The translations under genes and the position numbers were made by a program. From contig CAIIXF020000001.1 of assembly GCA_903813345.2 (NCBI GenBank), forward strand, positions 17,670,001-17,734,000: a stretch of DNA of 64,000 nt, written 5' to 3'. The stretch is from Owenia fusiformis (taxonomy: Eukaryota). Each line of letters starts with the position of its first letter. Within the stretch, counting starts at the first letter, position 1. Below, one piece after another: positions 1 to 51,093 of this stretch. Below the pieces are notes generated by a model. The model was not told the DNA's origin. It ran no database searches and saw only the letters and a program-made list of their open reading frames with translations.

Positions 1-360
1 TCATGTAGTCCTATTCAAAAACTTCCCGTTCGGTTATATGGTGAAAAAAATATCCCACGAACGAAAAAAGATTTTGCTACATTTATAAGCGAGCATTGAT
101 TTCTGGGCCTGTAAAAAGCACGTAGGACCTGATTACCCCATTGATTTACTGAGACCGCCAAAAATTTAATTCAATTTTTTGGTTCAAAATAATAATCTGT
201 CAGCGGTCCCTGACACTCCTACTAGCTATCACCAAACATTAATTGCCAATACATGTACACATATACGTGCCATACATCTACAAAGTAGCGAACTAGTGTA
301 TTAAGTACTACTTTTCCTATACGATGAGCAAAACAAATCTCAAGTAGGTTATATTGACCC

Positions 361-1225
361 TATTAGTGTCATGGTTGACTGAATATGCATTTTATTCAAT
401 ATGAATTTTAAAGTTCGGGGTTTTATGAAGTGATATGTACATTTTTGCTCAAATCCCCTCAGCACTTTTGATTCTATAGGGTTCTCTTGACCCCTGGGGT
501 CATTATATTTTGTGACAATTTATTCCAGACTAAATGTAGTTATTTTGTCATTAAAATATCTTATTAGAGAAACGTTCAGGAAAAGTTGCGCTATCCACAA
601 GACTTCTTGTCACTGCACTGATAAATGTAGCAAAATAGTCAAAATAATTCAGCCTTGAGCATGAAATTTTTGAATTTTTGGACAAATTTTGGGCTATTTT
701 GGGGGATTTTTGCCCATAACGATACTAATCTACTTAAAACAGCTGTTTAAAGTTGTACAAATTGCTTAAGTGATTTATATTCTCTCATAAGTAGGACTAT
801 TTGCTACTTTACTAAACTGAACATCATTGATTTTTCGTTTTTCATGAACTTCTGATGGCTAGTTCAAGTAGCATTGTCTTTTGTGCAGGTTTACTGAATA
901 CGTCCCTTTAAAATTGGGTCTTTCGTGGGTTTAAAGGGTCAAAATATTGGAACTTTGCACACCGTGGAACGTTTGGGGTGTGTTTCCTTTAATTTGGCAA
1001 GAACTGCATCAAATTACTTGATAAGAGAGCAGAAATGTAGCAATTTAGGCTGAAAAGTACTGTTTTCAATGAAAAAACGAAAATTGCTGACACAGCAAAA
1101 TTTAGATCGTCGTCTCCAGAATTTTAGGGGTTAATTTGCAAAACTTTAAATGGTCCCATAGAAACATATGCGAAATATGGCTAAATTCGACATATTTCTC
1201 GAAATTCACTAATAAATGTGGTTGA
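361..1225. repeat. Reference copy of satellite unit A (865 bp)
   Basis: Runs from TATTAGTGTCATGG to AAATGTGGTTGA. Contains the hairpin TGACCCC-T-GGGGTCA (488-502) and repeated AAATGTAG(CAA) motifs. Confidence 0.98.
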
Positions 1226-4200
1226 TATTAGTGTCATGGTTGACTGAATATGCATTTTATTCAATATGAATTTTAAAGTTCGGGGTTTTATGAAGTGATA
1301 TGTACATTTTTGCTCAAATCCCCTCAGCACTTTTGATTCTATAGGGTTCTCTTGACCCCTGGGGTCATTATATTTTGTGACAATTTATTCCAGACTAAAT
1401 GTAGTTATTTTGTCATTAAAATATCTTATTAGAGAAACGTTCAGGAAAAGTTGCGCTATCCACAAGACTTCTTGTCACTGCACTGATAAATGTAGCAAAA
1501 TAGTCAAAATAATTCAGCCTTGAGCATGAAATTTTTGAATTTTTGGACAAATTTTGGGCTATTTTGGGGGATTTTTGCCCATAACGATACTAATCTACTT
1601 AAAACAGCTGTTTAAAGTTGTACAAATTGCTTAAGTGATTTATATTCTCTCATAAGTAGGACTATTTGCTACTTTACTAAACTGAACATCATTGATTTTT
1701 CGTTTTTCATGAACTTCTGATGGCTAGTTCAAGTAGCATTGTCTTTTGTGCAGGTTTACTGAATACGTCCCTTTAAAATTGGGTCTTTCGTGGGTTTAAA
1801 GGGTCAAAATATTGGAACTTTGCACACCGTGGAACGTTTGGGGTGTGTTTCCTTTAATTTGGCAAGAACTGCATCAAATTACTTGATAAGAGAGCAGAAA
1901 TGTAGCAATTTAGGCTGAAAAGTACTGTTTTCAATGAAAAAACGAAAATTGCTGACACAGCAAAATTTAGATCGTCGTCTCCAGAATTTTAGGGGTTAAT
2001 TTGCAAAACTTTAAATGGTCCCATAGAAACATATGCGAAATATGGCTAAATTCGACATATTTCTCGAAATTCACTAATAAATGTGGTTGATATTAGTGTC
2101 ATGGTTGACTGAATATGCATTTTATTCAATATGAATTTTAAAGTTCGGGGTTTTATGAAGTGATATGTACATTTTTGCTCAAATCCCCTCAGCACTTTTG
2201 ATTCTATAGGGTTCTCTTGACCCCTGGGGTCATTATATTTTGTGACAATTTATTCCAGACTAAATGTAGTTATTTTGTCATTAAAATATCTTATTAGAGA
2301 AACGTTCAGGAAAAGTTGCGCTATCCACAAGACTTCTTGTCACTGCACTGATAAATGTAGCAAAATAGTCAAAATAATTCAGCCTTGAGCATGAAATTTT
2401 TGAATTTTTGGACAAATTTTGGGCTATTTTGGGGGATTTTTGCCCATAACGATACTAATCTACTTAAAACAGCTGTTTAAAGTTGTACAAATTGCTTAAG
2501 TGATTTATATTCTCTCATAAGTAGGACTATTTGCTACTTTACTAAACTGAACATCATTGATTTTTCGTTTTTCATGAACTTCTGATGGCTAGTTCAAGTA
2601 GCATTGTCTTTTGTGCAGGTTTACTGAATACGTCCCTTTAAAATTGGGTCTTTCGTGGGTTTAAAGGGTCAAAATATTGGAACTTTGCACACCGTGGAAC
2701 GTTTGGGGTGTGTTTCCTTTAATTTGGCAAGAACTGCATCAAATTACTTGATAAGAGAGCAGAAATGTAGCAATTTAGGCTGAAAAGTACTGTTTTCAAT
2801 GAAAAAACGAAAATTGCTGACACAGCAAAATTTAGATCGTCGTCTCCAGAATTTTAGGGGTTAATTTGCAAAACTTTAAATGGTCCCATAGAAACATATG
2901 CGAAATATGGCTAAATTCGACATATTTCTCGAAATTCACTAATAAATGTGGTTGATATTAGTGTCATGGTTGACTGAATATGCATTTTATTCAATATGAA
3001 TTTTAAAGTTCGGGGTTTTATGAAGTGATATGTACATTTTTGCTCAAATCCCCTCAGCACTTTTGATTCTATAGGGTTCTCTTGACCCCTGGGGTCATTA
3101 TATTTTGTGACAATTTATTCCAGACTAAATGTAGTTATTTTGTCATTAAAATATCTTATTAGAGAAACGTTCAGGAAAAGTTGCGCTATCCACAAGACTT
3201 CTTGTCACTGCACTGATAAATGTAGCAAAATAGTCAAAATAATTCAGCCTTGAGCATGAAATTTTTGAATTTTTGGACAAATTTTGGGCTATTTTGGGGG
3301 ATTTTTGCCCATAACGATACTAATCTACTTAAAACAGCTGTTTAAAGTTGTACAAATTGCTTAAGTGATTTATATTCTCTCATAAGTAGGACTATTTGCT
3401 ACTTTACTAAACTGAACATCATTGATTTTTCGTTTTTCATGAACTTCTGATGGCTAGTTCAAGTAGCATTGTCTTTTGTGCAGGTTTACTGAATACGTCC
3501 CTTTAAAATTGGGTCTTTCGTGGGTTTAAAGGGTCAAAATATTGGAACTTTGCACACCGTGGAACGTTTGGGGTGTGTTTCCTTTAATTTGGCAAGAACT
3601 GCATCAAATTACTTGATAAGAGAGCAGAAATGTAGCAATTTAGGCTGAAAAGTACTGTTTTCAATGAAAAAACGAAAATTGCTGACACAGCAAAATTTAG
3701 ATCGTCGTCTCCAGAATTTTAGGGGTTAATTTGCAAAACTTTAAATGGTCCCATAGAAACATATGCGAAATATGGCTAAATTCGACATATTTCTCGAAAT
3801 TCACTAATAAATGTGGTTGATATTAGTGTCATGGTTGACTGAATATGCATTTTATTCAATATGAATTTTAAAGTTCGGGGTTTTATGAAGTGATATGTAC
3901 ATTTTTGCTCAAATCCCCTCAGCACTTTTGATTCTATAGGGTTCTCTTGACCCCTGGGGTCATTATATTTTGTGACAATTTATTCCAGACTAAATGTAGT
4001 TATTTTGTCATTAAAATATCTTATTAGAGAAACGTTCAGGAAAAGTTGCGCTATCCACAAGACTTCTTGTCACTGCACTGATAAATGTAGCAAAATAGTC
4101 AAAATAATTCAGCCTTGAGCATGAAATTTTTGAATTTTTGGACAAATTTTGGGCTATTTTGGGGGATTTTTGCCCATAACGATACTAATCTACTTAAAAC

Positions 4201-4686
4201 AGCTGTTTAAAGTTGTACAAATTGCTTAAGTGATTTATATTCTCTCATAAGTAGGACTATTTGCTACTTTACTAAACTGAACATCATTGATTTTTCGTTT
4301 TTCATGAACTTCTGATGGCTAGTTCAAGTAGCATTGTCTTTTGTGCAGGTTTACTGAATACGTCCCTTTAAAATTGGGTCTTTCGTGGGTTTAAAGGGTC
4401 AAAATATTGGAACTTTGCACACCGTGGAACGTTTGGGGTGTGTTTCCTTTAATTTGGCAAGAACTGCATCAAATTACTTGATAAGAGAGCAGAAATGTAG
4501 CAATTTAGGCTGAAAAGTACTGTTTTCAATGAAAAAAACGAAAATTGCTGACACAGCAAAATTTAGATCGTCGTCTCCAGAATTTTAGGGGTTAATTTGC
4601 AAAACTTTAAATGGTCCCATAGAAACATATGCGAAATATGGCTAAATTCGACATATTTCTCGAAATTCACTAATAAATGTGGTTGA

Positions 4687-5159
4687 TATTAGGTAGAAAG
4701 CAACTTACTTTTTCACCCATTGGAATACATGTAAAATTGGCAAAGTTCAAATCATAATTTCTCAAATCCCAGCCCATCGAATCCTCACATCCATTCAGAT
4801 CATGTAGTCCTATTCAAAAACTTCCCGTTCGGTTATATGGTGAAAAAAATATCCCACGAACGAAAAAAGATTTTGCTACATTTATAAGCGAGCATTGATT
4901 TCTGGGCCTGTAAAAAGCACGTAGGACCTGATTACCCCATTGATTTACTGAGACCGCCAAAAATTTAATTCAATTTTTTGGTTCAAAATAATAATCTGTC
5001 AGCGGTCCCTGACACTCCTACTAGCTATCACCAAACATTAATTGCCAATACATGTACACATATACGTGCCATACATCTACAAAGTAGCGAACTAGTGTAT
5101 TAAGTACTACTTTTCCTATACGATGAGCAAAACAAATCTCAAGTAGGTTATATTGACCC
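4687..5159. repeat. Reference copy of satellite unit B (473 bp)
   Basis: TATTAG-GTAGAAAGCAACTT...GGTTATATTGACCC, followed by the TATTAG of the next A; identical by eye in all copies. Confidence 0.98.
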
Positions 5160-8100
5160 TATTAGTGTCATGGTTGACTGAATATGCATTTTATTCAATA
5201 TGAATTTTAAAGTTCGGGGTTTTATGAAGTGATATGTACATTTTTGCTCAAATCCCCTCAGCACTTTTGATTCTATAGGGTTCTCTTGACCCCTGGGGTC
5301 ATTATATTTTGTGACAATTTATTCCAGACTAAATGTAGTTATTTTGTCATTAAAATATCTTATTAGAGAAACGTTCAGGAAAAGTTGCGCTATCCACAAG
5401 ACTTCTTGTCACTGCACTGATAAATGTAGCAAAATAGTCAAAATAATTCAGCCTTGAGCATGAAATTTTTGAATTTTTGGACAAATTTTGGGCTATTTTG
5501 GGGGATTTTTGCCCATAACGATACTAATCTACTTAAAACAGCTGTTTAAAGTTGTACAAATTGCTTAAGTGATTTATATTCTCTCATAAGTAGGACTATT
5601 TGCTACTTTACTAAACTGAACATCATTGATTTTTCGTTTTTCATGAACTTCTGATGGCTAGTTCAAGTAGCATTGTCTTTTGTGCAGGTTTACTGAATAC
5701 GTCCCTTTAAAATTGGGTCTTTCGTGGGTTTAAAGGGTCAAAATATTGGAACTTTGCACACCGTGGAACGTTTGGGGTGTGTTTCCTTTAATTTGGCAAG
5801 AACTGCATCAAATTACTTGATAAGAGAGCAGAAATGTAGCAATTTAGGCTGAAAAGTACTGTTTTCAATGAAAAAACGAAAATTGCTGACACAGCAAAAT
5901 TTAGATCGTCGTCTCCAGAATTTTAGGGGTTAATTTGCAAAACTTTAAATGGTCCCATAGAAACATATGCGAAATATGGCTAAATTCGACATATTTCTCG
6001 AAATTCACTAATAAATGTGGTTGATATTAGTGTCATGGTTGACTGAATATGCATTTTATTCAATATGAATTTTAAAGTTCGGGGTTTTATGAAGTGATAT
6101 GTACATTTTTGCTCAAATCCCCTCAGCACTTTTGATTCTATAGGGTTCTCTTGACCCCTGGGGTCATTATATTTTGTGACAATTTATTCCAGACTAAATG
6201 TAGTTATTTTGTCATTAAAATATCTTATTAGAGAAACGTTCAGGAAAAGTTGCGCTATCCACAAGACTTCTTGTCACTGCACTGATAAATGTAGCAAAAT
6301 AGTCAAAATAATTCAGCCTTGAGCATGAAATTTTTGAATTTTTGGACAAATTTTGGGCTATTTTGGGGGATTTTTGCCCATAACGATACTAATCTACTTA
6401 AAACAGCTGTTTAAAGTTGTACAAATTGCTTAAGTGATTTATATTCTCTCATAAGTAGGACTATTTGCTACTTTACTAAACTGAACATCATTGATTTTTC
6501 GTTTTTCATGAACTTCTGATGGCTAGTTCAAGTAGCATTGTCTTTTGTGCAGGTTTACTGAATACGTCCCTTTAAAATTGGGTCTTTCGTGGGTTTAAAG
6601 GGTCAAAATATTGGAACTTTGCACACCGTGGAACGTTTGGGGTGTGTTTCCTTTAATTTGGCAAGAACTGCATCAAATTACTTGATAAGAGAGCAGAAAT
6701 GTAGCAATTTAGGCTGAAAAGTACTGTTTTCAATGAAAAAACGAAAATTGCTGACACAGCAAAATTTAGATCGTCGTCTCCAGAATTTTAGGGGTTAATT
6801 TGCAAAACTTTAAATGGTCCCATAGAAACATATGCGAAATATGGCTAAATTCGACATATTTCTCGAAATTCACTAATAAATGTGGTTGATATTAGTGTCA
6901 TGGTTGACTGAATATGCATTTTATTCAATATGAATTTTAAAGTTCGGGGTTTTATGAAGTGATATGTACATTTTTGCTCAAATCCCCTCAGCACTTTTGA
7001 TTCTATAGGGTTCTCTTGACCCCTGGGGTCATTATATTTTGTGACAATTTATTCCAGACTAAATGTAGTTATTTTGTCATTAAAATATCTTATTAGAGAA
7101 ACGTTCAGGAAAAGTTGCGCTATCCACAAGACTTCTTGTCACTGCACTGATAAATGTAGCAAAATAGTCAAAATAATTCAGCCTTGAGCATGAAATTTTT
7201 GAATTTTTGGACAAATTTTGGGCTATTTTGGGGGATTTTTGCCCATAACGATACTAATCTACTTAAAACAGCTGTTTAAAGTTGTACAAATTGCTTAAGT
7301 GATTTATATTCTCTCATAAGTAGGACTATTTGCTACTTTACTAAACTGAACATCATTGATTTTTCGTTTTTCATGAACTTCTGATGGCTAGTTCAAGTAG
7401 CATTGTCTTTTGTGCAGGTTTACTGAATACGTCCCTTTAAAATTGGGTCTTTCGTGGGTTTAAAGGGTCAAAATATTGGAACTTTGCACACCGTGGAACG
7501 TTTGGGGTGTGTTTCCTTTAATTTGGCAAGAACTGCATCAAATTACTTGATAAGAGAGCAGAAATGTAGCAATTTAGGCTGAAAAGTACTGTTTTCAATG
7601 AAAAAAACGAAAATTGCTGACACAGCAAAATTTAGATCGTCGTCTCCAGAATTTTAGGGGTTAATTTGCAAAACTTTAAATGGTCCCATAGAAACATATG
7701 CGAAATATGGCTAAATTCGACATATTTCTCGAAATTCACTAATAAATGTGGTTGATATTAGTGTCATGGTTGACTGAATATGCATTTTATTCAATATGAA
7801 TTTTAAAGTTCGGGGTTTTATGAAGTGATATGTACATTTTTGCTCAAATCCCCTCAGCACTTTTGATTCTATAGGGTTCTCTTGACCCCTGGGGTCATTA
7901 TATTTTGTGACAATTTATTCCAGACTAAATGTAGTTATTTTGTCATTAAAATATCTTATTAGAGAAACGTTCAGGAAAAGTTGCGCTATCCACAAGACTT
8001 CTTGTCACTGCACTGATAAATGTAGCAAAATAGTCAAAATAATTCAGCCTTGAGCATGAAATTTTTGAATTTTTGGACAAATTTTGGGCTATTTTGGGGG

Positions 8101-11100
8101 ATTTTTGCCCATAACGATACTAATCTACTTAAAACAGCTGTTTAAAGTTGTACAAATTGCTTAAGTGATTTATATTCTCTCATAAGTAGGACTATTTGCT
8201 ACTTTACTAAACTGAACATCATTGATTTTTCGTTTTTCATGAACTTCTGATGGCTAGTTCAAGTAGCATTGTCTTTTGTGCAGGTTTACTGAATACGTCC
8301 CTTTAAAATTGGGTCTTTCGTGGGTTTAAAGGGTCAAAATATTGGAACTTTGCACACCGTGGAACGTTTGGGGTGTGTTTCCTTTAATTTGGCAAGAACT
8401 GCATCAAATTACTTGATAAGAGAGCAGAAATGTAGCAATTTAGGCTGAAAAGTACTGTTTTCAATGAAAAAACGAAAATTGCTGACACAGCAAAATTTAG
8501 ATCGTCGTCTCCAGAATTTTAGGGGTTAATTTGCAAAACTTTAAATGGTCCCATAGAAACATATGCGAAATATGGCTAAATTCGACATATTTCTCGAAAT
8601 TCACTAATAAATGTGGTTGATATTAGTGTCATGGTTGACTGAATATGCATTTTATTCAATATGAATTTTAAAGTTCGGGGTTTTATGAAGTGATATGTAC
8701 ATTTTTGCTCAAATCCCCTCAGCACTTTTGATTCTATAGGGTTCTCTTGACCCCTGGGGTCATTATATTTTGTGACAATTTATTCCAGACTAAATGTAGT
8801 TATTTTGTCATTAAAATATCTTATTAGAGAAACGTTCAGGAAAAGTTGCGCTATCCACAAGACTTCTTGTCACTGCACTGATAAATGTAGCAAAATAGTC
8901 AAAATAATTCAGCCTTGAGCATGAAATTTTTGAATTTTTGGACAAATTTTGGGCTATTTTGGGGGATTTTTGCCCATAACGATACTAATCTACTTAAAAC
9001 AGCTGTTTAAAGTTGTACAAATTGCTTAAGTGATTTATATTCTCTCATAAGTAGGACTATTTGCTACTTTACTAAACTGAACATCATTGATTTTTCGTTT
9101 TTCATGAACTTCTGATGGCTAGTTCAAGTAGCATTGTCTTTTGTGCAGGTTTACTGAATACGTCCCTTTAAAATTGGGTCTTTCGTGGGTTTAAAGGGTC
9201 AAAATATTGGAACTTTGCACACCGTGGAACGTTTGGGGTGTGTTTCCTTTAATTTGGCAAGAACTGCATCAAATTACTTGATAAGAGAGCAGAAATGTAG
9301 CAATTTAGGCTGAAAAGTACTGTTTTCAATGAAAAAACGAAAATTGCTGACACAGCAAAATTTAGATCGTCGTCTCCAGAATTTTAGGGGTTAATTTGCA
9401 AAACTTTAAATGGTCCCATAGAAACATATGCGAAATATGGCTAAATTCGACATATTTCTCGAAATTCACTAATAAATGTGGTTGATATTAGTGTCATGGT
9501 TGACTGAATATGCATTTTATTCAATATGAATTTTAAAGTTCGGGGTTTTATGAAGTGATATGTACATTTTTGCTCAAATCCCCTCAGCACTTTTGATTCT
9601 ATAGGGTTCTCTTGACCCCTGGGGTCATTATATTTTGTGACAATTTATTCCAGACTAAATGTAGTTATTTTGTCATTAAAATATCTTATTAGAGAAACGT
9701 TCAGGAAAAGTTGCGCTATCCACAAGACTTCTTGTCACTGCACTGATAAATGTAGCAAAATAGTCAAAATAATTCAGCCTTGAGCATGAAATTTTTGAAT
9801 TTTTGGACAAATTTTGGGCTATTTTGGGGGATTTTTGCCCATAACGATACTAATCTACTTAAAACAGCTGTTTAAAGTTGTACAAATTGCTTAAGTGATT
9901 TATATTCTCTCATAAGTAGGACTATTTGCTACTTTACTAAACTGAACATCATTGATTTTTCGTTTTTCATGAACTTCTGATGGCTAGTTCAAGTAGCATT
10001 GTCTTTTGTGCAGGTTTACTGAATACGTCCCTTTAAAATTGGGTCTTTCGTGGGTTTAAAGGGTCAAAATATTGGAACTTTGCACACCGTGGAACGTTTG
10101 GGGTGTGTTTCCTTTAATTTGGCAAGAACTGCATCAAATTACTTGATAAGAGAGCAGAAATGTAGCAATTTAGGCTGAAAAGTACTGTTTTCAATGAAAA
10201 AAACGAAAATTGCTGACACAGCAAAATTTAGATCGTCGTCTCCAGAATTTTAGGGGTTAATTTGCAAAACTTTAAATGGTCCCATAGAAACATATGCGAA
10301 ATATGGCTAAATTCGACATATTTCTCGAAATTCACTAATAAATGTGGTTGATATTAGTGTCATGGTTGACTGAATATGCATTTTATTCAATATGAATTTT
10401 AAAGTTCGGGGTTTTATGAAGTGATATGTACATTTTTGCTCAAATCCCCTCAGCACTTTTGATTCTATAGGGTTCTCTTGACCCCTGGGGTCATTATATT
10501 TTGTGACAATTTATTCCAGACTAAATGTAGTTATTTTGTCATTAAAATATCTTATTAGAGAAACGTTCAGGAAAAGTTGCGCTATCCACAAGACTTCTTG
10601 TCACTGCACTGATAAATGTAGCAAAATAGTCAAAATAATTCAGCCTTGAGCATGAAATTTTTGAATTTTTGGACAAATTTTGGGCTATTTTGGGGGATTT
10701 TTGCCCATAACGATACTAATCTACTTAAAACAGCTGTTTAAAGTTGTACAAATTGCTTAAGTGATTTATATTCTCTCATAAGTAGGACTATTTGCTACTT
10801 TACTAAACTGAACATCATTGATTTTTCGTTTTTCATGAACTTCTGATGGCTAGTTCAAGTAGCATTGTCTTTTGTGCAGGTTTACTGAATACGTCCCTTT
10901 AAAATTGGGTCTTTCGTGGGTTTAAAGGGTCAAAATATTGGAACTTTGCACACCGTGGAACGTTTGGGGTGTGTTTCCTTTAATTTGGCAAGAACTGCAT
11001 CAAATTACTTGATAAGAGAGCAGAAATGTAGCAATTTAGGCTGAAAAGTACTGTTTTCAATGAAAAAACGAAAATTGCTGACACAGCAAAATTTAGATCG

Positions 11101-17100: not shown

Positions 17101-20100
17101 AAAGTTGCGCTATCCACAAGACTTCTTGTCACTGCACTGATAAATGTAGCAAAATAGTCAAAATAATTCAGCCTTGAGCATGAAATTTTTGAATTTTTGG
17201 ACAAATTTTGGGCTATTTTGGGGGATTTTTGCCCATAACGATACTAATCTACTTAAAACAGCTGTTTAAAGTTGTACAAATTGCTTAAGTGATTTATATT
17301 CTCTCATAAGTAGGACTATTTGCTACTTTACTAAACTGAACATCATTGATTTTTCGTTTTTCATGAACTTCTGATGGCTAGTTCAAGTAGCATTGTCTTT
17401 TGTGCAGGTTTACTGAATACGTCCCTTTAAAATTGGGTCTTTCGTGGGTTTAGAGGGTCAAAATATTGGAACTTTGCACACCGTGGAACGTTTGGGGTGT
17501 GTTTCCTTTAATTTGGCAAGAACTGCATCAAATTACTTGATAAGAGAGCAGAAATGTAGCAATTTAGGCTGAAAAGTACTGTTTTCAATGAAAAAAACGA
17601 AAATTGCTGACACAGCAAAATTTAGATCGTCGTCTCCAGAATTTTAGGGGTTAATTTGCAAAACTTTAAATGGTCCCATAGAAACATATGCGAAATATGG
17701 CTAAATTCGACATATTTCTCGAAATTCACTAATAAATGTGGTTGATATTAGTGTCATGGTTGACTGAATATGCATTTTATTCAATATGAATTTTAAAGTT
17801 CGGGGTTTTATGAAGTGATATGTACATTTTTGCTCAAATCCCCTCAGCACTTTTGATTCTATAGGGTTCTCTTGACCCCTGGGGTCATTATATTTTGTGA
17901 CAATTTATTCCAGACTAAATGTAGTTATTTTGTCATTAAAATATCTTATTAGAGAAACGTTCAGGAAAAGTTGCGCTATCCACAAGACTTCTTGTCACTG
18001 CACTGATAAATGTAGCAAAATAGTCAAAATAATTCAGCCTTGAGCATGAAATTTTTGAATTTTTGGACAAATTTTGGGCTATTTTGGGGGATTTTTGCCC
18101 ATAACGATACTAATCTACTTAAAACAGCTGTTTAAAGTTGTACAAATTGCTTAAGTGATTTATATTCTCTCATAAGTAGGACTATTTGCTACTTTACTAA
18201 ACTGAACATCATTGATTTTTCGTTTTTCATGAACTTCTGATGGCTAGTTCAAGTAGCATTGTCTTTTGTGCAGGTTTACTGAATACGTCCCTTTAAAATT
18301 GGGTCTTTCGTGGGTTTAAAGGGTCAAAATATTGGAACTTTGCACACCGTGGAACGTTTGGGGTGTGTTTCCTTTAATTTGGCAAGAACTGCATCAAATT
18401 ACTTGATAAGAGAGCAGAAATGTAGCAATTTAGGCTGAAAAGTACTGTTTTCAATGAAAAAACGAAAATTGCTGACACAGCAAAATTTAGATCGTCGTCT
18501 CCAGAATTTTAGGGGTTAATTTGCAAAACTTTAAATGGTCCCATAGAAACATATGCGAAATATGGCTAAATTCGACATATTTCTCGAAATTCACTAATAA
18601 ATGTGGTTGATATTAGGTAGAAAGCAACTTACTTTTTCACCCATTGGAATACATGTAAAATTGGCAAAGTTCAAATCATAATTTCTCAAATCCCAGCCCA
18701 TCGAATCCTCACATCCATTCAGATCATGTAGTCCTATTCAAAAACTTCCCGTTCGGTTATATGGTGAAAAAAATATCCCACGAACGAAAAAAGATTTTGC
18801 TACATTTATAAGCGAGCATTGATTTCTGGGCCTGTAAAAAGCACGTAGGACCTGATTACCCCATTGATTTACTGAGACCGCCAAAAATTTAATTCAATTT
18901 TTTGGTTCAAAATAATAATCTGTCAGCGGTCCCTGACACTCCTACTAGCTATCACCAAACATTAATTGCCAATACATGTACACATATACGTGCCATACAT
19001 CTACAAAGTAGCGAACTAGTGTATTAAGTACTACTTTTCCTATACGATGAGCAAAACAAATCTCAAGTAGGTTATATTGACCCTATTAGTGTCATGGTTG
19101 ACTGAATATGCATTTTATTCAATATGAATTTTAAAGTTCGGGGTTTTATGAAGTGATATGTACATTTTTGCTCAAATCCCCTCAGCACTTTTGATTCTAT
19201 AGGGTTCTCTTGACCCCTGGGGTCATTATATTTTGTGACAATTTATTCCAGACTAAATGTAGTTATTTTGTCATTAAAATATCTTATTAGAGAAACGTTC
19301 AGGAAAAGTTGCGCTATCCACAAGACTTCTTGTCACTGCACTGATAAATGTAGCAAAATAGTCAAAATAATTCAGCCTTGAGCATGAAATTTTTGAATTT
19401 TTGGACAAATTTTGGGCTATTTTGGGGGATTTTTGCCCATAACGATACTAATCTACTTAAAACAGCTGTTTAAAGTTGTACAAATTGCTTAAGTGATTTA
19501 TATTCTCTCATAAGTAGGACTATTTGCTACTTTACTAAACTGAACATCATTGATTTTTCGTTTTTCATGAACTTCTGATGGCTAGTTCAAGTAGCATTGT
19601 CTTTTGTGCAGGTTTACTGAATACGTCCCTTTAAAATTGGGTCTTTCGTGGGTTTAGAGGGTCAAAATATTGGAACTTTGCACACCGTGGAACGTTTGGG
19701 GTGTGTTTCCTTTAATTTGGCAAGAACTGCATCAAATTACTTGATAAGAGAGCAGAAATGTAGCAATTTAGGCTGAAAAGTACTGTTTTCAATGAAAAAA
19801 CGAAAATTGCTGACACAGCAAAATTTAGATCGTCGTCTCCAGAATTTTAGGGGTTAATTTGCAAAACTTTAAATGGTCCCATAGAAACATATGCGAAATA
19901 TGGCTAAATTCGACATATTTCTCGAAATTCACTAATAAATGTGGTTGATATTAGGTAGAAAGCAACTTACTTTTTCACCCATTGGAATACATGTAAAATT
20001 GGCAAAGTTCAAATCATAATTTCTCAAATCCCAGCCCATCGAATCCTCACATCCATTCAGATCATGTAGTCCTATTCAAAAACTTCCCGTTCGGTTATAT

Positions 20101-23100
20101 GGTGAAAAAAATATCCCACGAACGAAAAAAGATTTTGCTACATTTATAAGCGAGCATTGATTTCTGGGCCTGTAAAAAGCACGTAGGACCTGATTACCCC
20201 ATTGATTTACTGAGACCGCCAAAAATTTAATTCAATTTTTTGGTTCAAAATAATAATCTGTCAGCGGTCCCTGACACTCCTACTAGCTATCACCAAACAT
20301 TAATTGCCAATACATGTACACATATACGTGCCATACATCTACAAAGTAGCGAACTAGTGTATTAAGTACTACTTTTCCTATACGATGAGCAAAACAAATC
20401 TCAAGTAGGTTATATTGACCCTATTAGTGTCATGGTTGACTGAATATGCATTTTATTCAATATGAATTTTAAAGTTCGGGGTTTTATGAAGTGATATGTA
20501 CATTTTTGCTCAAATCCCCTCAGCACTTTTGATTCTATAGGGTTCTCTTGACCCCTGGGGTCATTATATTTTGTGACAATTTATTCCAGACTAAATGTAG
20601 TTATTTTGTCATTAAAATATCTTATTAGAGAAACGTTCAGGAAAAGTTGCGCTATCCACAAGACTTCTTGTCACTGCACTGATAAATGTAGCAAAATAGT
20701 CAAAATAATTCAGCCTTGAGCATGAAATTTTTGAATTTTTGGACAAATTTTGGGCTATTTTGGGGGATTTTTGCCCATAACGATACTAATCTACTTAAAA
20801 CAGCTGTTTAAAGTTGTACAAATTGCTTAAGTGATTTATATTCTCTCATAAGTAGGACTATTTGCTACTTTACTAAACTGAACATCATTGATTTTTCGTT
20901 TTTCATGAACTTCTGATGGCTAGTTCAAGTAGCATTGTCTTTTGTGCAGGTTTACTGAATACGTCCCTTTAAAATTGGGTCTTTCGTGGGTTTAAAGGGT
21001 CAAAATATTGGAACTTTGCACACCGTGGAACGTTTGGGGTGTGTTTCCTTTAATTTGGCAAGAACTGCATCAAATTACTTGATAAGAGAGCAGAAATGTA
21101 GCAATTTAGGCTGAAAAGTACTGTTTTCAATGAAAAAACGAAAATTGCTGACACAGCAAAATTTAGATCGTCGTCTCCAGAATTTTAGGGGTTAATTTGC
21201 AAAACTTTAAATGGTCCCATAGAAACATATGCGAAATATGGCTAAATTCGACATATTTCTCGAAATTCACTAATAAATGTGGTTGATATTAGTGTCATGG
21301 TTGACTGAATATGCATTTTATTCAATATGAATTTTAAAGTTCGGGGTTTTATGAAGTGATATGTACATTTTTGCTCAAATCCCCTCAGCACTTTTGATTC
21401 TATAGGGTTCTCTTGACCCCTGGGGTCATTATATTTTGTGACAATTTATTCCAGACTAAATGTAGTTATTTTGTCATTAAAATATCTTATTAGAGAAACG
21501 TTCAGGAAAAGTTGCGCTATCCACAAGACTTCTTGTCACTGCACTGATAAATGTAGCAAAATAGTCAAAATAATTCAGCCTTGAGCATGAAATTTTTGAA
21601 TTTTTGGACAAATTTTGGGCTATTTTGGGGGATTTTTGCCCATAACGATACTAATCTACTTAAAACAGCTGTTTAAAGTTGTACAAATTGCTTAAGTGAT
21701 TTATATTCTCTCATAAGTAGGACTATTTGCTACTTTACTAAACTGAACATCATTGATTTTTCGTTTTTCATGAACTTCTGATGGCTAGTTCAAGTAGCAT
21801 TGTCTTTTGTGCAGGTTTACTGAATACGTCCCTTTAAAATTGGGTCTTTCGTGGGTTTAGAGGGTCAAAATATTGGAACTTTGCACACCGTGGAACGTTT
21901 GGGGTGTGTTTCCTTTAATTTGGCAAGAACTGCATCAAATTACTTGATAAGAGAGCAGAAATGTAGCAATTTAGGCTGAAAAGTACTGTTTTCAATGAAA
22001 AAACGAAAATTGCTGACACAGCAAAATTTAGATCGTCGTCTCCAGAATTTTAGGGGTTAATTTGCAAAACTTTAAATGGTCCCATAGAAACATATGCGAA
22101 ATATGGCTAAATTCGACATATTTCTCGAAATTCACTAATAAATGTGGTTGATATTAGGTAGAAAGCAACTTACTTTTTCACCCATTGGAATACATGTAAA
22201 ATTGGCAAAGTTCAAATCATAATTTCTCAAATCCCAGCCCATCGAATCCTCACATCCATTCAGATCATGTAGTCCTATTCAAAAACTTCCCGTTCGGTTA
22301 TATGGTGAAAAAAATATCCCACGAACGAAAAAAGATTTTGCTACATTTATAAGCGAGCATTGATTTCTGGGCCTGTAAAAAGCACGTAGGACCTGATTAC
22401 CCCATTGATTTACTGAGACCGCCAAAAATTTAATTCAATTTTTTGGTTCAAAATAATAATCTGTCAGCGGTCCCTGACACTCCTACTAGCTATCACCAAA
22501 CATTAATTGCCAATACATGTACACATATACGTGCCATACATCTACAAAGTAGCGAACTAGTGTATTAAGTACTACTTTTCCTATACGATGAGCAAAACAA
22601 ATCTCAAGTAGGTTATATTGACCCTATTAGTGTCATGGTTGACTGAATATGCATTTTATTCAATATGAATTTTAAAGTTCGGGGTTTTATGAAGTGATAT
22701 GTACATTTTTGCTCAAATCCCCTCAGCACTTTTGATTCTATAGGGTTCTCTTGACCCCTGGGGTCATTATATTTTGTGACAATTTATTCCAGACTAAATG
22801 TAGTTATTTTGTCATTAAAATATCTTATTAGAGAAACGTTCAGGAAAAGTTGCGCTATCCACAAGACTTCTTGTCACTGCACTGATAAATGTAGCAAAAT
22901 AGTCAAAATAATTCAGCCTTGAGCATGAAATTTTTGAATTTTTGGACAAATTTTGGGCTATTTTGGGGGATTTTTGCCCATAACGATACTAATCTACTTA
23001 AAACAGCTGTTTAAAGTTGTACAAATTGCTTAAGTGATTTATATTCTCTCATAAGTAGGACTATTTGCTACTTTACTAAACTGAACATCATTGATTTTTC

Positions 23101-26100
23101 GTTTTTCATGAACTTCTGATGGCTAGTTCAAGTAGCATTGTCTTTTGTGCAGGTTTACTGAATACGTCCCTTTAAAATTGGGTCTTTCGTGGGTTTAGAG
23201 GGTCAAAATATTGGAACTTTGCACACCGTGGAACGTTTGGGGTGTGTTTCCTTTAATTTGGCAAGAACTGCATCAAATTACTTGATAAGAGAGCAGAAAT
23301 GTAGCAATTTAGGCTGAAAAGTACTGTTTTCAATGAAAAAACGAAAATTGCTGACACAGCAAAATTTAGATCGTCGTCTCCAGAATTTTAGGGGTTAATT
23401 TGCAAAACTTTAAATGGTCCCATAGAAACATATGCGAAATATGGCTAAATTCGACATATTTCTCGAAATTCACTAATAAATGTGGTTGATATTAGGTAGA
23501 AAGCAACTTACTTTTTCACCCATTGGAATACATGTAAAATTGGCAAAGTTCAAATCATAATTTCTCAAATCCCAGCCCATCGAATCCTCACATCCATTCA
23601 GATCATGTAGTCCTATTCAAAAACTTCCCGTTCGGTTATATGGTGAAAAAAATATCCCACGAACGAAAAAAGATTTTGCTACATTTATAAGCGAGCATTG
23701 ATTTCTGGGCCTGTAAAAAGCACGTAGGACCTGATTACCCCATTGATTTACTGAGACCGCCAAAAATTTAATTCAATTTTTTGGTTCAAAATAATAATCT
23801 GTCAGCGGTCCCTGACACTCCTACTAGCTATCACCAAACATTAATTGCCAATACATGTACACATATACGTGCCATACATCTACAAAGTAGCGAACTAGTG
23901 TATTAAGTACTACTTTTCCTATACGATGAGCAAAACAAATCTCAAGTAGGTTATATTGACCCTATTAGTGTCATGGTTGACTGAATATGCATTTTATTCA
24001 ATATGAATTTTAAAGTTCGGGGTTTTATGAAGTGATATGTACATTTTTGCTCAAATCCCCTCAGCACTTTTGATTCTATAGGGTTCTCTTGACCCCTGGG
24101 GTCATTATATTTTGTGACAATTTATTCCAGACTAAATGTAGTTATTTTGTCATTAAAATATCTTATTAGAGAAACGTTCAGGAAAAGTTGCGCTATCCAC
24201 AAGACTTCTTGTCACTGCACTGATAAATGTAGCAAAATAGTCAAAATAATTCAGCCTTGAGCATGAAATTTTTGAATTTTTGGACAAATTTTGGGCTATT
24301 TTGGGGGATTTTTGCCCATAACGATACTAATCTACTTAAAACAGCTGTTTAAAGTTGTACAAATTGCTTAAGTGATTTATATTCTCTCATAAGTAGGACT
24401 ATTTGCTACTTTACTAAACTGAACATCATTGATTTTTCGTTTTTCATGAACTTCTGATGGCTAGTTCAAGTAGCATTGTCTTTTGTGCAGGTTTACTGAA
24501 TACGTCCCTTTAAAATTGGGTCTTTCGTGGGTTTAAAGGGTCAAAATATTGGAACTTTGCACACCGTGGAACGTTTGGGGTGTGTTTCCTTTAATTTGGC
24601 AAGAACTGCATCAAATTACTTGATAAGAGAGCAGAAATGTAGCAATTTAGGCTGAAAAGTACTGTTTTCAATGAAAAAACGAAAATTGCTGACACAGCAA
24701 AATTTAGATCGTCGTCTCCAGAATTTTAGGGGTTAATTTGCAAAACTTTAAATGGTCCCATAGAAACATATGCGAAATATGGCTAAATTCGACATATTTC
24801 TCGAAATTCACTAATAAATGTGGTTGATATTAGTGTCATGGTTGACTGAATATGCATTTTATTCAATATGAATTTTAAAGTTCGGGGTTTTATGAAGTGA
24901 TATGTACATTTTTGCTCAAATCCCCTCAGCACTTTTGATTCTATAGGGTTCTCTTGACCCCTGGGGTCATTATATTTTGTGACAATTTATTCCAGACTAA
25001 ATGTAGTTATTTTGTCATTAAAATATCTTATTAGAGAAACGTTCAGGAAAAGTTGCGCTATCCACAAGACTTCTTGTCACTGCACTGATAAATGTAGCAA
25101 AATAGTCAAAATAATTCAGCCTTGAGCATGAAATTTTTGAATTTTTGGACAAATTTTGGGCTATTTTGGGGGATTTTTGCCCATAACGATACTAATCTAC
25201 TTAAAACAGCTGTTTAAAGTTGTACAAATTGCTTAAGTGATTTATATTCTCTCATAAGTAGGACTATTTGCTACTTTACTAAACTGAACATCATTGATTT
25301 TTCGTTTTTCATGAACTTCTGATGGCTAGTTCAAGTAGCATTGTCTTTTGTGCAGGTTTACTGAATACGTCCCTTTAAAATTGGGTCTTTCGTGGGTTTA
25401 GAGGGTCAAAATATTGGAACTTTGCACACCGTGGAACGTTTGGGGTGTGTTTCCTTTAATTTGGCAAGAACTGCATCAAATTACTTGATAAGAGAGCAGA
25501 AATGTAGCAATTTAGGCTGAAAAGTACTGTTTTCAATGAAAAAACGAAAATTGCTGACACAGCAAAATTTAGATCGTCGTCTCCAGAATTTTAGGGGTTA
25601 ATTTGCAAAACTTTAAATGGTCCCATAGAAACATATGCGAAATATGGCTAAATTCGACATATTTCTCGAAATTCACTAATAAATGTGGTTGATATTAGGT
25701 AGAAAGCAACTTACTTTTTCACCCATTGGAATACATGTAAAATTGGCAAAGTTCAAATCATAATTTCTCAAATCCCAGCCCATCGAATCCTCACATCCAT
25801 TCAGATCATGTAGTCCTATTCAAAAACTTCCCGTTCGGTTATATGGTGAAAAAAATATCCCACGAACGAAAAAAGATTTTGCTACATTTATAAGCGAGCA
25901 TTGATTTCTGGGCCTGTAAAAAGCACGTAGGACCTGATTACCCCATTGATTTACTGAGACCGCCAAAAATTTAATTCAATTTTTTGGTTCAAAATAATAA
26001 TCTGTCAGCGGTCCCTGACACTCCTACTAGCTATCACCAAACATTAATTGCCAATACATGTACACATATACGTGCCATACATCTACAAAGTAGCGAACTA

Positions 26101-29100
26101 GTGTATTAAGTACTACTTTTCCTATACGATGAGCAAAACAAATCTCAAGTAGGTTATATTGACCCTATTAGTGTCATGGTTGACTGAATATGCATTTTAT
26201 TCAATATGAATTTTAAAGTTCGGGGTTTTATGAAGTGATATGTACATTTTTGCTCAAATCCCCTCAGCACTTTTGATTCTATAGGGTTCTCTTGACCCCT
26301 GGGGTCATTATATTTTGTGACAATTTATTCCAGACTAAATGTAGTTATTTTGTCATTAAAATATCTTATTAGAGAAACGTTCAGGAAAAGTTGCGCTATC
26401 CACAAGACTTCTTGTCACTGCACTGATAAATGTAGCAAAATAGTCAAAATAATTCAGCCTTGAGCATGAAATTTTTGAATTTTTGGACAAATTTTGGGCT
26501 ATTTTGGGGGATTTTTGCCCATAACGATACTAATCTACTTAAAACAGCTGTTTAAAGTTGTACAAATTGCTTAAGTGATTTATATTCTCTCATAAGTAGG
26601 ACTATTTGCTACTTTACTAAACTGAACATCATTGATTTTTCGTTTTTCATGAACTTCTGATGGCTAGTTCAAGTAGCATTGTCTTTTGTGCAGGTTTACT
26701 GAATACGTCCCTTTAAAATTGGGTCTTTCGTGGGTTTAAAGGGTCAAAATATTGGAACTTTGCACACCGTGGAACGTTTGGGGTGTGTTTCCTTTAATTT
26801 GGCAAGAACTGCATCAAATTACTTGATAAGAGAGCAGAAATGTAGCAATTTAGGCTGAAAAGTACTGTTTTCAATGAAAAAACGAAAATTGCTGACACAG
26901 CAAAATTTAGATCGTCGTCTCCAGAATTTTAGGGGTTAATTTGCAAAACTTTAAATGGTCCCATAGAAACATATGCGAAATATGGCTAAATTCGACATAT
27001 TTCTCGAAATTCACTAATAAATGTGGTTGATATTAGTGTCATGGTTGACTGAATATGCATTTTATTCAATATGAATTTTAAAGTTCGGGGTTTTATGAAG
27101 TGATATGTACATTTTTGCTCAAATCCCCTCAGCACTTTTGATTCTATAGGGTTCTCTTGACCCCTGGGGTCATTATATTTTGTGACAATTTATTCCAGAC
27201 TAAATGTAGTTATTTTGTCATTAAAATATCTTATTAGAGAAACGTTCAGGAAAAGTTGCGCTATCCACAAGACTTCTTGTCACTGCACTGATAAATGTAG
27301 CAAAATAGTCAAAATAATTCAGCCTTGAGCATGAAATTTTTGAATTTTTGGACAAATTTTGGGCTATTTTGGGGGATTTTTGCCCATAACGATACTAATC
27401 TACTTAAAACAGCTGTTTAAAGTTGTACAAATTGCTTAAGTGATTTATATTCTCTCATAAGTAGGACTATTTGCTACTTTACTAAACTGAACATCATTGA
27501 TTTTTCGTTTTTCATGAACTTCTGATGGCTAGTTCAAGTAGCATTGTCTTTTGTGCAGGTTTACTGAATACGTCCCTTTAAAATTGGGTCTTTCGTGGGT
27601 TTAGAGGGTCAAAATATTGGAACTTTGCACACCGTGGAACGTTTGGGGTGTGTTTCCTTTAATTTGGCAAGAACTGCATCAAATTACTTGATAAGAGAGC
27701 AGAAATGTAGCAATTTAGGCTGAAAAGTACTGTTTTCAATGAAAAAACGAAAATTGCTGACACAGCAAAATTTAGATCGTCGTCTCCAGAATTTTAGGGG
27801 TTAATTTGCAAAACTTTAAATGGTCCCATAGAAACATATGCGAAATATGGCTAAATTCGACATATTTCTCGAAATTCACTAATAAATGTGGTTGATATTA
27901 GGTAGAAAGCAACTTACTTTTTCACCCATTGGAATACATGTAAAATTGGCAAAGTTCAAATCATAATTTCTCAAATCCCAGCCCATCGAATCCTCACATC
28001 CATTCAGATCATGTAGTCCTATTCAAAAACTTCCCGTTCGGTTATATGGTGAAAAAAATATCCCACGAACGAAAAAAGATTTTGCTACATTTATAAGCGA
28101 GCATTGATTTCTGGGCCTGTAAAAAGCACGTAGGACCTGATTACCCCATTGATTTACTGAGACCGCCAAAAATTTAATTCAATTTTTTGGTTCAAAATAA
28201 TAATCTGTCAGCGGTCCCTGACACTCCTACTAGCTATCACCAAACATTAATTGCCAATACATGTACACATATACGTGCCATACATCTACAAAGTAGCGAA
28301 CTAGTGTATTAAGTACTACTTTTCCTATACGATGAGCAAAACAAATCTCAAGTAGGTTATATTGACCCTATTAGTGTCATGGTTGACTGAATATGCATTT
28401 TATTCAATATGAATTTTAAAGTTCGGGGTTTTATGAAGTGATATGTACATTTTTGCTCAAATCCCCTCAGCACTTTTGATTCTATAGGGTTCTCTTGACC
28501 CCTGGGGTCATTATATTTTGTGACAATTTATTCCAGACTAAATGTAGTTATTTTGTCATTAAAATATCTTATTAGAGAAACGTTCAGGAAAAGTTGCGCT
28601 ATCCACAAGACTTCTTGTCACTGCACTGATAAATGTAGCAAAATAGTCAAAATAATTCAGCCTTGAGCATGAAATTTTTGAATTTTTGGACAAATTTTGG
28701 GCTATTTTGGGGGATTTTTGCCCATAACGATACTAATCTACTTAAAACAGCTGTTTAAAGTTGTACAAATTGCTTAAGTGATTTATATTCTCTCATAAGT
28801 AGGACTATTTGCTACTTTACTAAACTGAACATCATTGATTTTTCGTTTTTCATGAACTTCTGATGGCTAGTTCAAGTAGCATTGTCTTTTGTGCAGGTTT
28901 ACTGAATACGTCCCTTTAAAATTGGGTCTTTCGTGGGTTTAAAGGGTCAAAATATTGGAACTTTGCACACCGTGGAACGTTTGGGGTGTGTTTCCTTTAA
29001 TTTGGCAAGAACTGCATCAAATTACTTGATAAGAGAGCAGAAATGTAGCAATTTAGGCTGAAAAGTACTGTTTTCAATGAAAAAAACGAAAATTGCTGAC

Positions 29101-30999
29101 ACAGCAAAATTTAGATCGTCGTCTCCAGAATTTTAGGGGTTAATTTGCAAAACTTTAAATGGTCCCATAGAAACATATGCGAAATATGGCTAAATTCGAC
29201 ATATTTCTCGAAATTCACTAATAAATGTGGTTGATATTAGTGTCATGGTTGACTGAATATGCATTTTATTCAATATGAATTTTAAAGTTCGGGGTTTTAT
29301 GAAGTGATATGTACATTTTTGCTCAAATCCCCTCAGCACTTTTGATTCTATAGGGTTCTCTTGACCCCTGGGGTCATTATATTTTGTGACAATTTATTCC
29401 AGACTAAATGTAGTTATTTTGTCATTAAAATATCTTATTAGAGAAACGTTCAGGAAAAGTTGCGCTATCCACAAGACTTCTTGTCACTGCACTGATAAAT
29501 GTAGCAAAATAGTCAAAATAATTCAGCCTTGAGCATGAAATTTTTGAATTTTTGGACAAATTTTGGGCTATTTTGGGGGATTTTTGCCCATAACGATACT
29601 AATCTACTTAAAACAGCTGTTTAAAGTTGTACAAATTGCTTAAGTGATTTATATTCTCTCATAAGTAGGACTATTTGCTACTTTACTAAACTGAACATCA
29701 TTGATTTTTCGTTTTTCATGAACTTCTGATGGCTAGTTCAAGTAGCATTGTCTTTTGTGCAGGTTTACTGAATACGTCCCTTTAAAATTGGGTCTTTCGT
29801 GGGTTTAGAGGGTCAAAATATTGGAACTTTGCACACCGTGGAACGTTTGGGGTGTGTTTCCTTTAATTTGGCAAGAACTGCATCAAATTACTTGATAAGA
29901 GAGCAGAAATGTAGCAATTTAGGCTGAAAAGTACTGTTTTCAATGAAAAAACGAAAATTGCTGACACAGCAAAATTTAGATCGTCGTCTCCAGAATTTTA
30001 GGGGTTAATTTGCAAAACTTTAAATGGTCCCATAGAAACATATGCGAAATATGGCTAAATTCGACATATTTCTCGAAATTCACTAATAAATGTGGTTGAT
30101 ATTAGGTAGAAAGCAACTTACTTTTTCACCCATTGGAATACATGTAAAATTGGCAAAGTTCAAATCATAATTTCTCAAATCCCAGCCCATCGAATCCTCA
30201 CATCCATTCAGATCATGTAGTCCTATTCAAAAACTTCCCGTTCGGTTATATGGTGAAAAAAATATCCCACGAACGAAAAAAGATTTTGCTACATTTATAA
30301 GCGAGCATTGATTTCTGGGCCTGTAAAAAGCACGTAGGACCTGATTACCCCATTGATTTACTGAGACCGCCAAAAATTTAATTCAATTTTTTGGTTCAAA
30401 ATAATAATCTGTCAGCGGTCCCTGACACTCCTACTAGCTATCACCAAACATTAATTGCCAATACATGTACACATATACGTGCCATACATCTACAAAGTAG
30501 CGAACTAGTGTATTAAGTACTACTTTTCCTATACGATGAGCAAAACAAATCTCAAGTAGGTTATATTGACCCGTAGAAAGTCATTAATCACACATCTGGT
30601 GTTCTTGCACATGCGTAGTGGTAATAAAATCTGTCTTAGAAAATATGGCTGTGGTGTTTGAAGGCTATGTCATGTTGTCTGGTAAGCTTAAAATCTATGA
30701 TTTCTACCAACATTTCTCTGTCTAAACTTATTACCTTATTATCTTATGATATTAAAGACTTGCTGAAACATATTTATTTGGTCATTATGTTACTATTTTA
30801 AAGGTATCAGTTAATATGAAATAGATATTTTTTGCATTTTTGAGTGTACCTTTACATCATATTTTCTATATTTTCCTACTTTTTTACTTCAGAACTTTTT
30901 TCACAGTGAGAAACAATGGGGTATTATGAAACAATATCACTTCAAGAAAAGTGTACATTATTTTTTTTAAAGAAGATATTGGCATTTTAATTGAGTAGG

Positions 31000-50973: not shown

Positions 50974-51012
<39 letters not shown>

Positions 51013-51093
51013 CGTCCGTCCGTCCGTCCGTCCGTCCGTCCGTCTGTCCGCCCGCCCGCCCGCCCGCCTACCCGCCCGCCCGCCTGTCTGTCT
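50328..51093. repeat. GC-rich compound repeat: 108-bp minisatellite made of 24- and 20-bp subunits, followed by (TCTG)n(TCCG)n(CCCG)n microsatellite
   Basis: 36-codon periodicity in the overlapping spurious ORFs; pure tetranucleotide tracts at about 50974-51092. Confidence 0.95.

Follow-up and report, generated by a model that had tools for sequence, protein, structure and literature searches.

Architecture of the tandem array

The analysed window is a 64-kb stretch of the Owenia fusiformis genome, in which positions 1..30572 (+) are occupied by a tandem array of 30 copies of a unit A together with nine whole copies and one cut copy of a unit B. From the window start to position 30572 the order is B(part) A5 B A12 B A3 B A B A2 B A B A2 B A2 B A2 B. 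Unit A measures 865 bp in 25/30 copies and 866 bp in 5/30; the eight internal B units are identical, each of 473 bp, the cut B spans 1-360 and the last B 30100-30572. Unit A, non-coding and with TATTA at both ends, corresponds to the internal region (INT) of a KolobokP DNA transposon, whose long terminal direct repeat (LTDR) makes up the last 468 bp of B (GG...CC). B is accordingly a 468-bp terminal repeat plus a 5-bp TATTA, and it has dispersed ends of its own and a published relative. The features are as follows:

1..30572 (+): very probably a KolobokP multimer, non-autonomous and built of LTDR and INT head to tail, of which the window covers the right-hand part and not the left end
1..360 (+): LTDR truncated where the window begins, identical to the final 360 bases of B
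361..4691 (+): five INT units with no LTDR between them
4692..5159 (+): LTDR, 468 bp, exact copy
5160..15546 (+): 12 INT units with no LTDR between them, the final two with G at INT position 574
15547..16014 (+): LTDR, 468 bp
16015..18615 (+): three INT units (alleles a, g, a)
18616..19083 (+): LTDR, 468 bp
19084..19953 (+): single INT (g) flanked by two LTDRs, the canonical LTDR-INT-LTDR monomer of 1806 bp
19954..20421 (+): LTDR, 468 bp
20422..22156 (+): two INT units (a, g) that, joined to the LTDR behind them, make up the first ~2203-bp higher-order unit of four
22157..22624 (+): LTDR, 468 bp
22625..23494 (+): single INT (g)
23495..23962 (+): LTDR, 468 bp
23963..25697 (+): two INT units (a, g)
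25698..26165 (+): LTDR, 468 bp
26166..27900 (+): two INT units (a, g)
27901..28368 (+): LTDR, 468 bp
28369..30104 (+): two INT units (a, g), including the final whole INT at 29235-30104 (870 bp, with TATTA at both ends)
30105..30572 (+): terminal LTDR, 468 bp, GG...CC, imperfect inverted ends (12/19), the right end of the insertion as placed by mixed flanks in other runs and hand comparison with KolobokP-3_OwFu-LTDR
30573..30580 (+): flank on the target side, GTAGAAAG, with the expected target duplication in the first 3-5 bases

The junctions are uniform. All A-A junctions read GGTTGA-TATTAG-TGTCATGG (21/21), all A-B junctions GGTTGA-TATTAG-GTAGAAAG (9/9) and all B-A junctions TTGACCC-TATTAG-TGTCATGG (9/9), and the array contains no B-B junction. 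Thus, the array, its junction sequences and its mixture of two monomers of 1338 and 865 bp differing by one segment had been correctly described in the initial annotation, as had the rule that B never follows B, which results from the LTDR-INT-LTDR layout. The further description of B as the segment between two TATTAG copies holds at the internal B units, but the last B has no TATTAG after it and the array stops at the CC of the LTDR, from which it follows that the hexamer is part of A and not of B. Moreover, every A carries a third TATTAG, at position 202, which is used by no junction (0/30 units shortened). TATTAG is the 5-bp TATTA repeat plus a G common to INT and LTDR, and B, as a transposon terminal repeat with its TATTA, is not the optional, anonymous satellite module that had been proposed.

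The A units, 25,955 bases in total, vary just at a single SNP (position 574 of A, with G in 9/30 units) and by one extra A in a homopolymer (5/30). INT-only units outnumber LTDRs 3 to 1, the longest INT run being 12. No further A+B copies were found in the rest of the 64-kb window (best E=0.13). Tandem Repeats Finder, with its period limit of 500, did not detect the array, and an Rfam search of positions 26000-64000 returned four weak matches below the gathering score, none of them inside the array.

Joints and loose ends in other sequencing runs

The window was compared with four public runs of the same organism (including X1, X2, X8 and X22). The B-to-A joint is present in all four runs, and one X1 contig bridges A to B. 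Among the joints listed for these runs (15 of 18) there is no A-to-A joint, which leaves the assembly as the sole source for the 21 A-A junctions. This would fit an artefact in the A-A junctions or in the unit order, and near-identical 865-bp units are difficult to assemble. However, assemblers seldom create an exact new junction 21 times, the SNP is phased with junction type, and the same structure occurs in published data (PMC9587614, as far as compared). Rare variants are also lost from contigs, and since the runs and the window disagree at fixed positions, in A as well as in the flank, the runs probably derive from other individuals. We therefore consider an artefact highly improbable, while the exact unit count in the assembly may be wrong.

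Loose ends with mixed flanks were found on both sides of the terminal LTDR among the 24 of 318 rows listed: before 30104/30105 in X2 (5+4 contigs) and X22 (seven reads), and behind 30572 in X2 (three), X1 (one) and X22 (10); X8 has no loose-end row at either place among these 24. The host hence carries dispersed LTDR-bounded copies, solo LTDRs and monomers being indistinguishable in such data, and the dispersed parent element suspected earlier does exist. The right flank of the array sits within another, lower-copy repeat, and the sequence upstream of 30573 is constant in 4/4 runs. In the X22 RNA-seq data, 293 reads fall on both strands, 134 of them with a partial fit, and they are uninformative on transcription of the array.

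Relationship to KolobokP transposons

The array is very probably a multimer of a non-autonomous KolobokP element that inserted into another repeat, multiplied, lost one or more LTDRs and was amplified by local duplication. Nine exact 468-bp LTDR copies alternate with INT runs in a direct-repeat layout, and the array ends on an LTDR. KolobokP LTDRs are near 450 or near 660 bp long, many listed families having 466-473 bp (PMC9587614, in the part compared), which places the window LTDR inside the ~450-bp class. Its ends, GG...CC, correspond to the 5'-RR / YY-3' termini of KolobokP and were placed by the loose ends at 30104/30105 and 30572 together with the published relative. Inverted repeats at these ends are weak (7/14, 10/17 and 12/19 matches); Table S1 of the same source gives terminal inverted repeats of 1 to 25 bp. 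With longest frames of 67 aa in A+A and 57 aa in A+B, the element is non-autonomous and lacks the coding capacity of an autonomous KolobokP.

A 17-base motif of the window occurs once in supplementary file 3 of PMC9587614, within KolobokP-3_OwFu-LTDR. The other two of the three motifs compared with this file had no match, and three junction motifs gave no match in the four supplementary files compared, where line breaks can hide motifs, file 4 is truncated and one motif had a base outside the LTDR; a 23-base LTDR-start pattern had no match in metagenome contigs. Likeness to the published consensus is given as hand counts at chosen blocks. On this basis, the window LTDR agrees with KolobokP-3_OwFu-LTDR in 20/21 of the first and 42/54 of the last bases, and blocks of 20 and 22 bases are identical at matching offsets (20/20, 22/22).

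Two other element types were considered. A Helitron mobile unit runs from 5' TC to 3' CTRR, and its dispersed copies end in these motifs. Read by eye on its minus strand, A does show TC...CTAA, but the mixed-flank ends listed fall at the LTDR termini, and a Helitron tandem array was rejected. A Crypton or other tyrosine-recombinase unit has a 4-6-bp direct repeat on both sides and no RR...YY inverted ends. CryptonV was the initial lead and was abandoned on the loose-end evidence from other runs: unrelated letters lie behind the dispersed right ends, and the last B has no hexamer at its right.

SNP phase and growth of the array

Allele g of the SNP, which lies ~300 bases upstream of B, precedes B in 7/9 g units, allele a in 2/21 (Fisher p=0.0005), and the linkage is also seen in the right-hand 15 units alone (p=0.04). 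All four two-unit blocks read a-g-B (shuffle p=0.004), and B placement is skewed to the right, with one B in the first 15 units and eight in the last 15 (p=0.014). The linkage indicates that long and short units were inherited in blocks by local duplication and not picked anew at each hexamer.

The earlier proposal of TATTAG as a recurrent nick or crossover site, be it by Helitron-like end bypass or as a tyrosine-recombinase core, with the presence of B decided independently at every hexamer, therefore appears hardly credible. The hexamer is common to both junction types, and all four SNP/junction combinations occur. However, B travels with the upstream SNP, the internal TATTAG is unused, the array terminates at CC, the dispersed ends at 30104/30105 and 30572 do not have the hexamer on both sides, and B resembles the LTDR of a DDE-transposon. 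Since all four combinations are present, a single excision followed by crossover is indistinguishable from two excisions.

The most probable course is as follows. A non-autonomous KolobokP of 1806 bp (LTDR 468 bp, INT 870 bp, LTDR) would have entered another repeat and grown there to (LTDR-INT)n-LTDR. At least one removal of an internal LTDR plus one 5-bp TATTA would then have abutted two INTs, and later local duplication, by unequal crossover or repair from a neighbouring copy, would have amplified two linked unit types, short INT-only and long INT+LTDR, and produced the 2203-bp higher-order unit four times. We infer that the LTDR was removed by a transposase supplied in trans, perhaps from KolobokP-3_OwFu, and that unequal crossover drove the growth of the array.

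A host deletion could also account for the loss. In that case a single microhomology-mediated deletion between TATTA(G) copies, independent of any transposase, would have removed the LTDR, and amplification of the product would have followed, an explanation that we regard as rather unlikely, if still a serious contender. It is in line with the identity of all 21 A-A junctions, 19 of them on one SNP allele, with a 6-bp identity that suits microhomology repair and with the A-A junction being unseen among the joints listed for other runs. Against it, the lost segment has precisely the boundaries of the LTDR, no unit was shortened at the third TATTAG of A, and like junctions recur at separate loci and in three families (PMC9587614, in the part compared), where INT-INT junctions with one terminal motif (TATA in KolobokP-1_MeMe) are described as LTDR-excision products. 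The earlier suggestion of a single microhomology deletion amplified beside its parent comes close in its sequence of one loss and subsequent amplification, which fits the SNP phase, but LTDR excision explains the loss better than chance microhomology. The two routes have an equal sequence outcome and differ in the enzyme alone.

Growth by rolling-circle copying or by circles (LTDR-INT, 1338 bp; INT, 865 bp) integrating repeatedly in a targeted manner, instead of unequal crossover, seems improbable. The units are almost identical over 30 kb, which speaks for a recent burst, a circular LTDR-INT intermediate has been offered for multimers (PMC9587614, as far as compared), and the run of 12 INTs could be read as its product. 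This run, however, is within chance placement of B (p=0.09), a single circle would yield a uniform string, and the concentration of B at the right together with the fourfold a-g-B argues for local block duplication.

A more speculative interpretation, which we consider doubtful, sees in the array one stage of a ratchet that turns a transposon into a satellite. LTDR loss would leave INTs without transposase-binding ends, which could no longer undergo excision and would outgrow the LTDR-bearing units; the 12 INTs in a row and the three INTs per LTDR are what this reading points to. If true, satellites with kilobase monomers would regularly arise from KolobokP families. In its boldest form, the ~865-bp non-coding INT would be an old passenger paired with LTDRs of three autonomous families (2, 3 and 5), and insertion would have been aimed at a site mimicking the LTDR left end (nine matching bases in the right flank). 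Some bacterial insertion sequences are said to target sites mimicking their own ends.

Comparison with known systems

The array shares its layout, LTDR length class and RR...YY ends with KolobokP-1_MeMe-type multimers, (LTDR-INT)n-LTDR and LTDR-(INT)n-LTDR; as there, the short direct repeat of INT is kept once at INT-INT junctions (one TATTA in 21/21 here) and LTDR-LTDR junctions do not occur (PMC9587614, in the part compared). It differs in the 3-to-1 excess of INT-only units and in a footprint of 5 bp at INT-INT junctions, where that source gives 3-4 bp (1-5 bp for excisions in general). Its INT units number at least 30, up to 12 of them in succession, whereas the text of that source names (INT)4 and the longest row in the compared part of supplementary file 2 has five INTs; the chain is far longer than the published multimers compared.

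Among host families, the autonomous KolobokP-3_OwFu (LTDR 470 bp) has an LTDR collinear with that of the window at both ends and in the middle, but it is a different family: the LTDR interiors largely diverge, and the window INT (870 bp, non-coding) shares with the ends of the KolobokP-3_OwFu INT no more than a few terminal bases on either side. Two X1 loose ends equal the KolobokP-3_OwFu LTDR letter for letter (30/30, 28/28), so the organism also carries this family. The non-autonomous KolobokP-2N2_OwFu and KolobokP-5N1_OwFu (INT 865 and 861 bp) share INT length and start with the window element (first 22 bases 18/22 and 17/22 by hand), and KolobokP-2N2_OwFu-I also has the GGGGT-CATT motif at the same position, 140, and 31/39 matches ~160 bases from the end (hand counts). 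Their LTDRs, as far as given, are without the KolobokP-3-type blocks found in the window LTDR. The family of the window element is absent from the ten KolobokP families listed for the host in the compared part of PMC9587614; Repbase or subscription journals may list it.

Kolobok-derived satellites with long monomers have already been catalogued in oyster, where CgiSat13 and CgiSat16 (2414 bp) are annotated DNA/Kolobok (PMC8268682). Their monomer is close to LTDR+INT of KolobokP-N3_CGi (2872-460 = 2412), a match in length only, and, unlike for the window array, no two-unit structure or LTDR loss is mentioned in the portion of PMC8268682 compared. Tandem transposon arrays in Drosophila, such as the ~16 tandem hobo copies in one line, are likewise young and possibly private DNA-transposon expansions, but they begin with double insertions (PMC5932611, in the part compared), whereas the window array would have been seeded by the element's own direct repeats.

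The apparent puzzle of a binary satellite is thereby removed, as the array is, with high probability, a known kind of transposon multimer; its layout has already been described, and only the family and the chain length are new. Its remaining use lies in scale and youth. The models proposed in PMC9587614 are excision of LTDRs, integration of circles and unequal crossover triggered by the nuclease of the element, and a 2026 review still terms the model of that work unconfirmed (PMC13565253, in the part compared). With a chain of at least 30 kb and one phased SNP, these models become comparable at one locus across individuals.

Array structure and its repeat units

Splitting the array (window positions 1–30572) at its two junction motifs returned the order cut B, A5 B A12 B A3 B A B A2 B A B A2 B A2 B A2 B, where A is a unit of 865 bp and B one of 473 bp. 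This bears out the mixture of 865- and 1338-bp (A+B) monomers described in the initial annotation. The eight internal B copies are all identical, and the 30 A copies differ only by one SNP (A position 574) and one homopolymer. A third TATTAG is found at position 202 in every A and is used by no junction, while the last B passes directly into the flank without the hexamer. No protein-coding frame was found in A or B (longest frame, 67 aa), no Rfam match in the scanned part of the array, and no further copy of the units elsewhere in the window.

Dispersed copies in public sequencing runs

All or part of this stretch is present in 20 public runs, which belong to one organism and six studies, and the segment 29235–31000 was compared with four of 24 listed runs (X1, X2, X8 and X22). 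The family is large and varied, as more than 1,400 contigs matched per DNA run at a spread of identities (in X2, 828 at ≥ 99%, 487 at 95–99% and 257 lower). Reads or contigs that leave the window match into mixed flanks (loose ends) were found before 30104/30105 (5 + 4 contigs in X2 and seven reads in X22) and behind 30572 (three in X2, one in X1 and ten in X22), each among the rows listed; X8 showed none at these sites among 24 of 318 rows listed. B is dispersed and bounded by ends of its own. With regard to the A/B order in these runs, the joint from B end to A start was present in all four runs and A to B was bridged by one X1 contig, but no A-to-A joint appeared among 15 of 18 joints listed.

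Relationship to KolobokP transposons

Since these loose ends define their limits, the units can be redrawn as follows:
29235–30104, INT-like unit (internal region), 870 bp, TATTA on both ends
30105–30572, LTDR-like unit (long terminal direct repeat), 468 bp, GG...CC, weak inverted ends (12/19)

This layout is that of KolobokP DNA transposons, whose LTDRs, about 450 or about 660 bp long and bounded by RR...YY, enclose an internal region (PMC9587614). The same paper describes solo LTDRs, (LTDR-INT)n-LTDR multimers and INT-INT junctions, the latter retaining a single copy of the INT terminal motif, which its authors ascribe to LTDR excision. The 473-bp module of the initial annotation is an LTDR plus one TATTA rather than an anonymous module. 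TATTAG is the 5-bp INT terminal repeat plus a G serving as both LTDR base 1 and INT base 6. The hexamer is a family trait, because six of ten O. fusiformis INTs in the consensus file of PMC9587614 start with TA(A/C)TAG and a mussel family with TATTAG. B would never follow B because, in this layout, an INT always separates LTDRs and LTDR-LTDR recombination leaves one.

The nearest LTDR found in that consensus file is KolobokP-3_OwFu (470 bp), with LTDRs of other hosts compared by motif search. By hand count in chosen blocks, the two agree in 20/21 first and 42/54 last bases, and identical blocks span 20 bases (150–169 versus 148–167) and 22 bases (415–436 versus 417–438). A 17-base window motif has one match in the 1.06-million-character file, namely this LTDR, and two X1 loose ends are identical to it (30/30, 28/28). 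The array LTDR itself is absent from the ten given for O. fusiformis in PMC9587614. The array INT is collinear with that of the non-autonomous KolobokP-2N2_OwFu (start 18/22, a common motif at position 140, near end 31/39), and its start matches KolobokP-5N1_OwFu in 17/22 bases (hand counts). Across 29235–30572, the INT is therefore like those of 2N2 and 5N1 and the LTDR like family 3 (hand counts, supplementary file 3 of PMC9587614). This combination resembles a non-coding INT of ~865 bp common to three LTDR types, possibly through co-divergence or exchange.

The A-A junctions probably arose by transposase-mediated LTDR excision, for which KolobokP-3 may have acted as helper. The same junction sequence would be expected from microhomology repair by the host. 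Against the KolobokP reading stand the weak LTDR inverted ends and the A-A junction, which is present in the assembly but not among the joints listed for the four runs; the INT-INT footprint is 5 bp here, compared to 3–4 bp in PMC9587614.

Growth of the array

The G allele at A position 574 was absent from three contig sets and eight RNA reads and therefore probably arose within the array. B follows 7/9 units with G (g) and 2/21 with A (a) (p = 0.0005), an association also seen in the 15 units counted from the first G (p = 0.04), and two-unit blocks have the order a-g-B in 4/4 cases (p = 0.004, shuffling). B is furthermore skewed rightwards, with 1/15 in the first 15 units and 8/15 in the last 15 (p = 0.014). 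On this evidence, 26 of the 30 units fall into two linked types whose copies were multiplied block by block, probably by unequal crossover. The four exceptional units need either crossover or conversion within ~300 bases or a second excision, and the data fit either.

A single SNP in 25,955 bases, set against such a varied family, shows that the array is a recent clonal expansion. The bases at 29820, 29837 and 29966 are common to all 30 copies and rare or absent in the four compared runs; this may partly reflect a population difference, as the flank also differs from the runs.

Right flank and neighbouring features

The sequence flanking the array on the right is part of another repeat, which usually reads CACTG followed by GTAGAAAG (4/4 runs have loose ends before 30573). 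This repeat (30573–31000) has a lower copy number, is present in all four runs and shows constant upstream sequence. Nine bases at the flank junction equal the left end of the LTDR; the chance of the eight post-junction bases is ~2 in 100,000 given flank composition, for a single site spotted post hoc. Five X8 contigs follow the window as far as 30576 before departing from it, a possible hint of target preference.

Further features of the window
31167–34454, minus strand: open frame, 1095 aa stop to stop, reverse transcriptase domain (Pfam RVT_1, E = 3.8e-25)
43389–44162 and 47524–48096, plus strand: family-10 fucosyltransferase in two halves (PF17039, E = 3.2e-15; PF00852, E = 1.1e-36)
44209–44666: 43-bp tandem repeat, 10.7 copies, between the fucosyltransferase halves
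46374–46996: MITE-like foldback element, 623 bp, 75% match to its own reverse complement
50335–51088: nested tandem repeats with periods of 8, 20, 108 and 216, leading into GTCT/GTCC tetranucleotide runs
52185–52342: palindromic 22-bp repeats; Rfam microRNA matches weak and well under the gathering score
54737–54959 and 61784–62007: inverted pair, ~225 bp, 80% identity, 7 kb apart

The frame at 31167–34454 belongs to a LINE-type element that appears intact and lies ~600 bases beyond the end of the array. The fucosyltransferase halves lie ~3.4 kb apart, with the 43-bp tandem repeat and a palindromic element between them, and the gap could be either an intron or a disruption. The microRNA matches are probably due to chance, arising from the hairpin, and the inverted pair may mark the termini of an old DNA transposon or be a dispersed repeat that occurs here twice.

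Comparison with known arrays

The structural kind of this array has already been published (PMC9587614), and Kolobok-annotated satellites of 2414 bp have been catalogued in oyster (PMC8268682). Its KolobokP family seems not to be among those listed in PMC9587614. According to the authors of that study, long arrays were under-assembled; the present chain is far longer than the multimers compared from it, (INT)4 in the text and five INTs in supplementary file 2.
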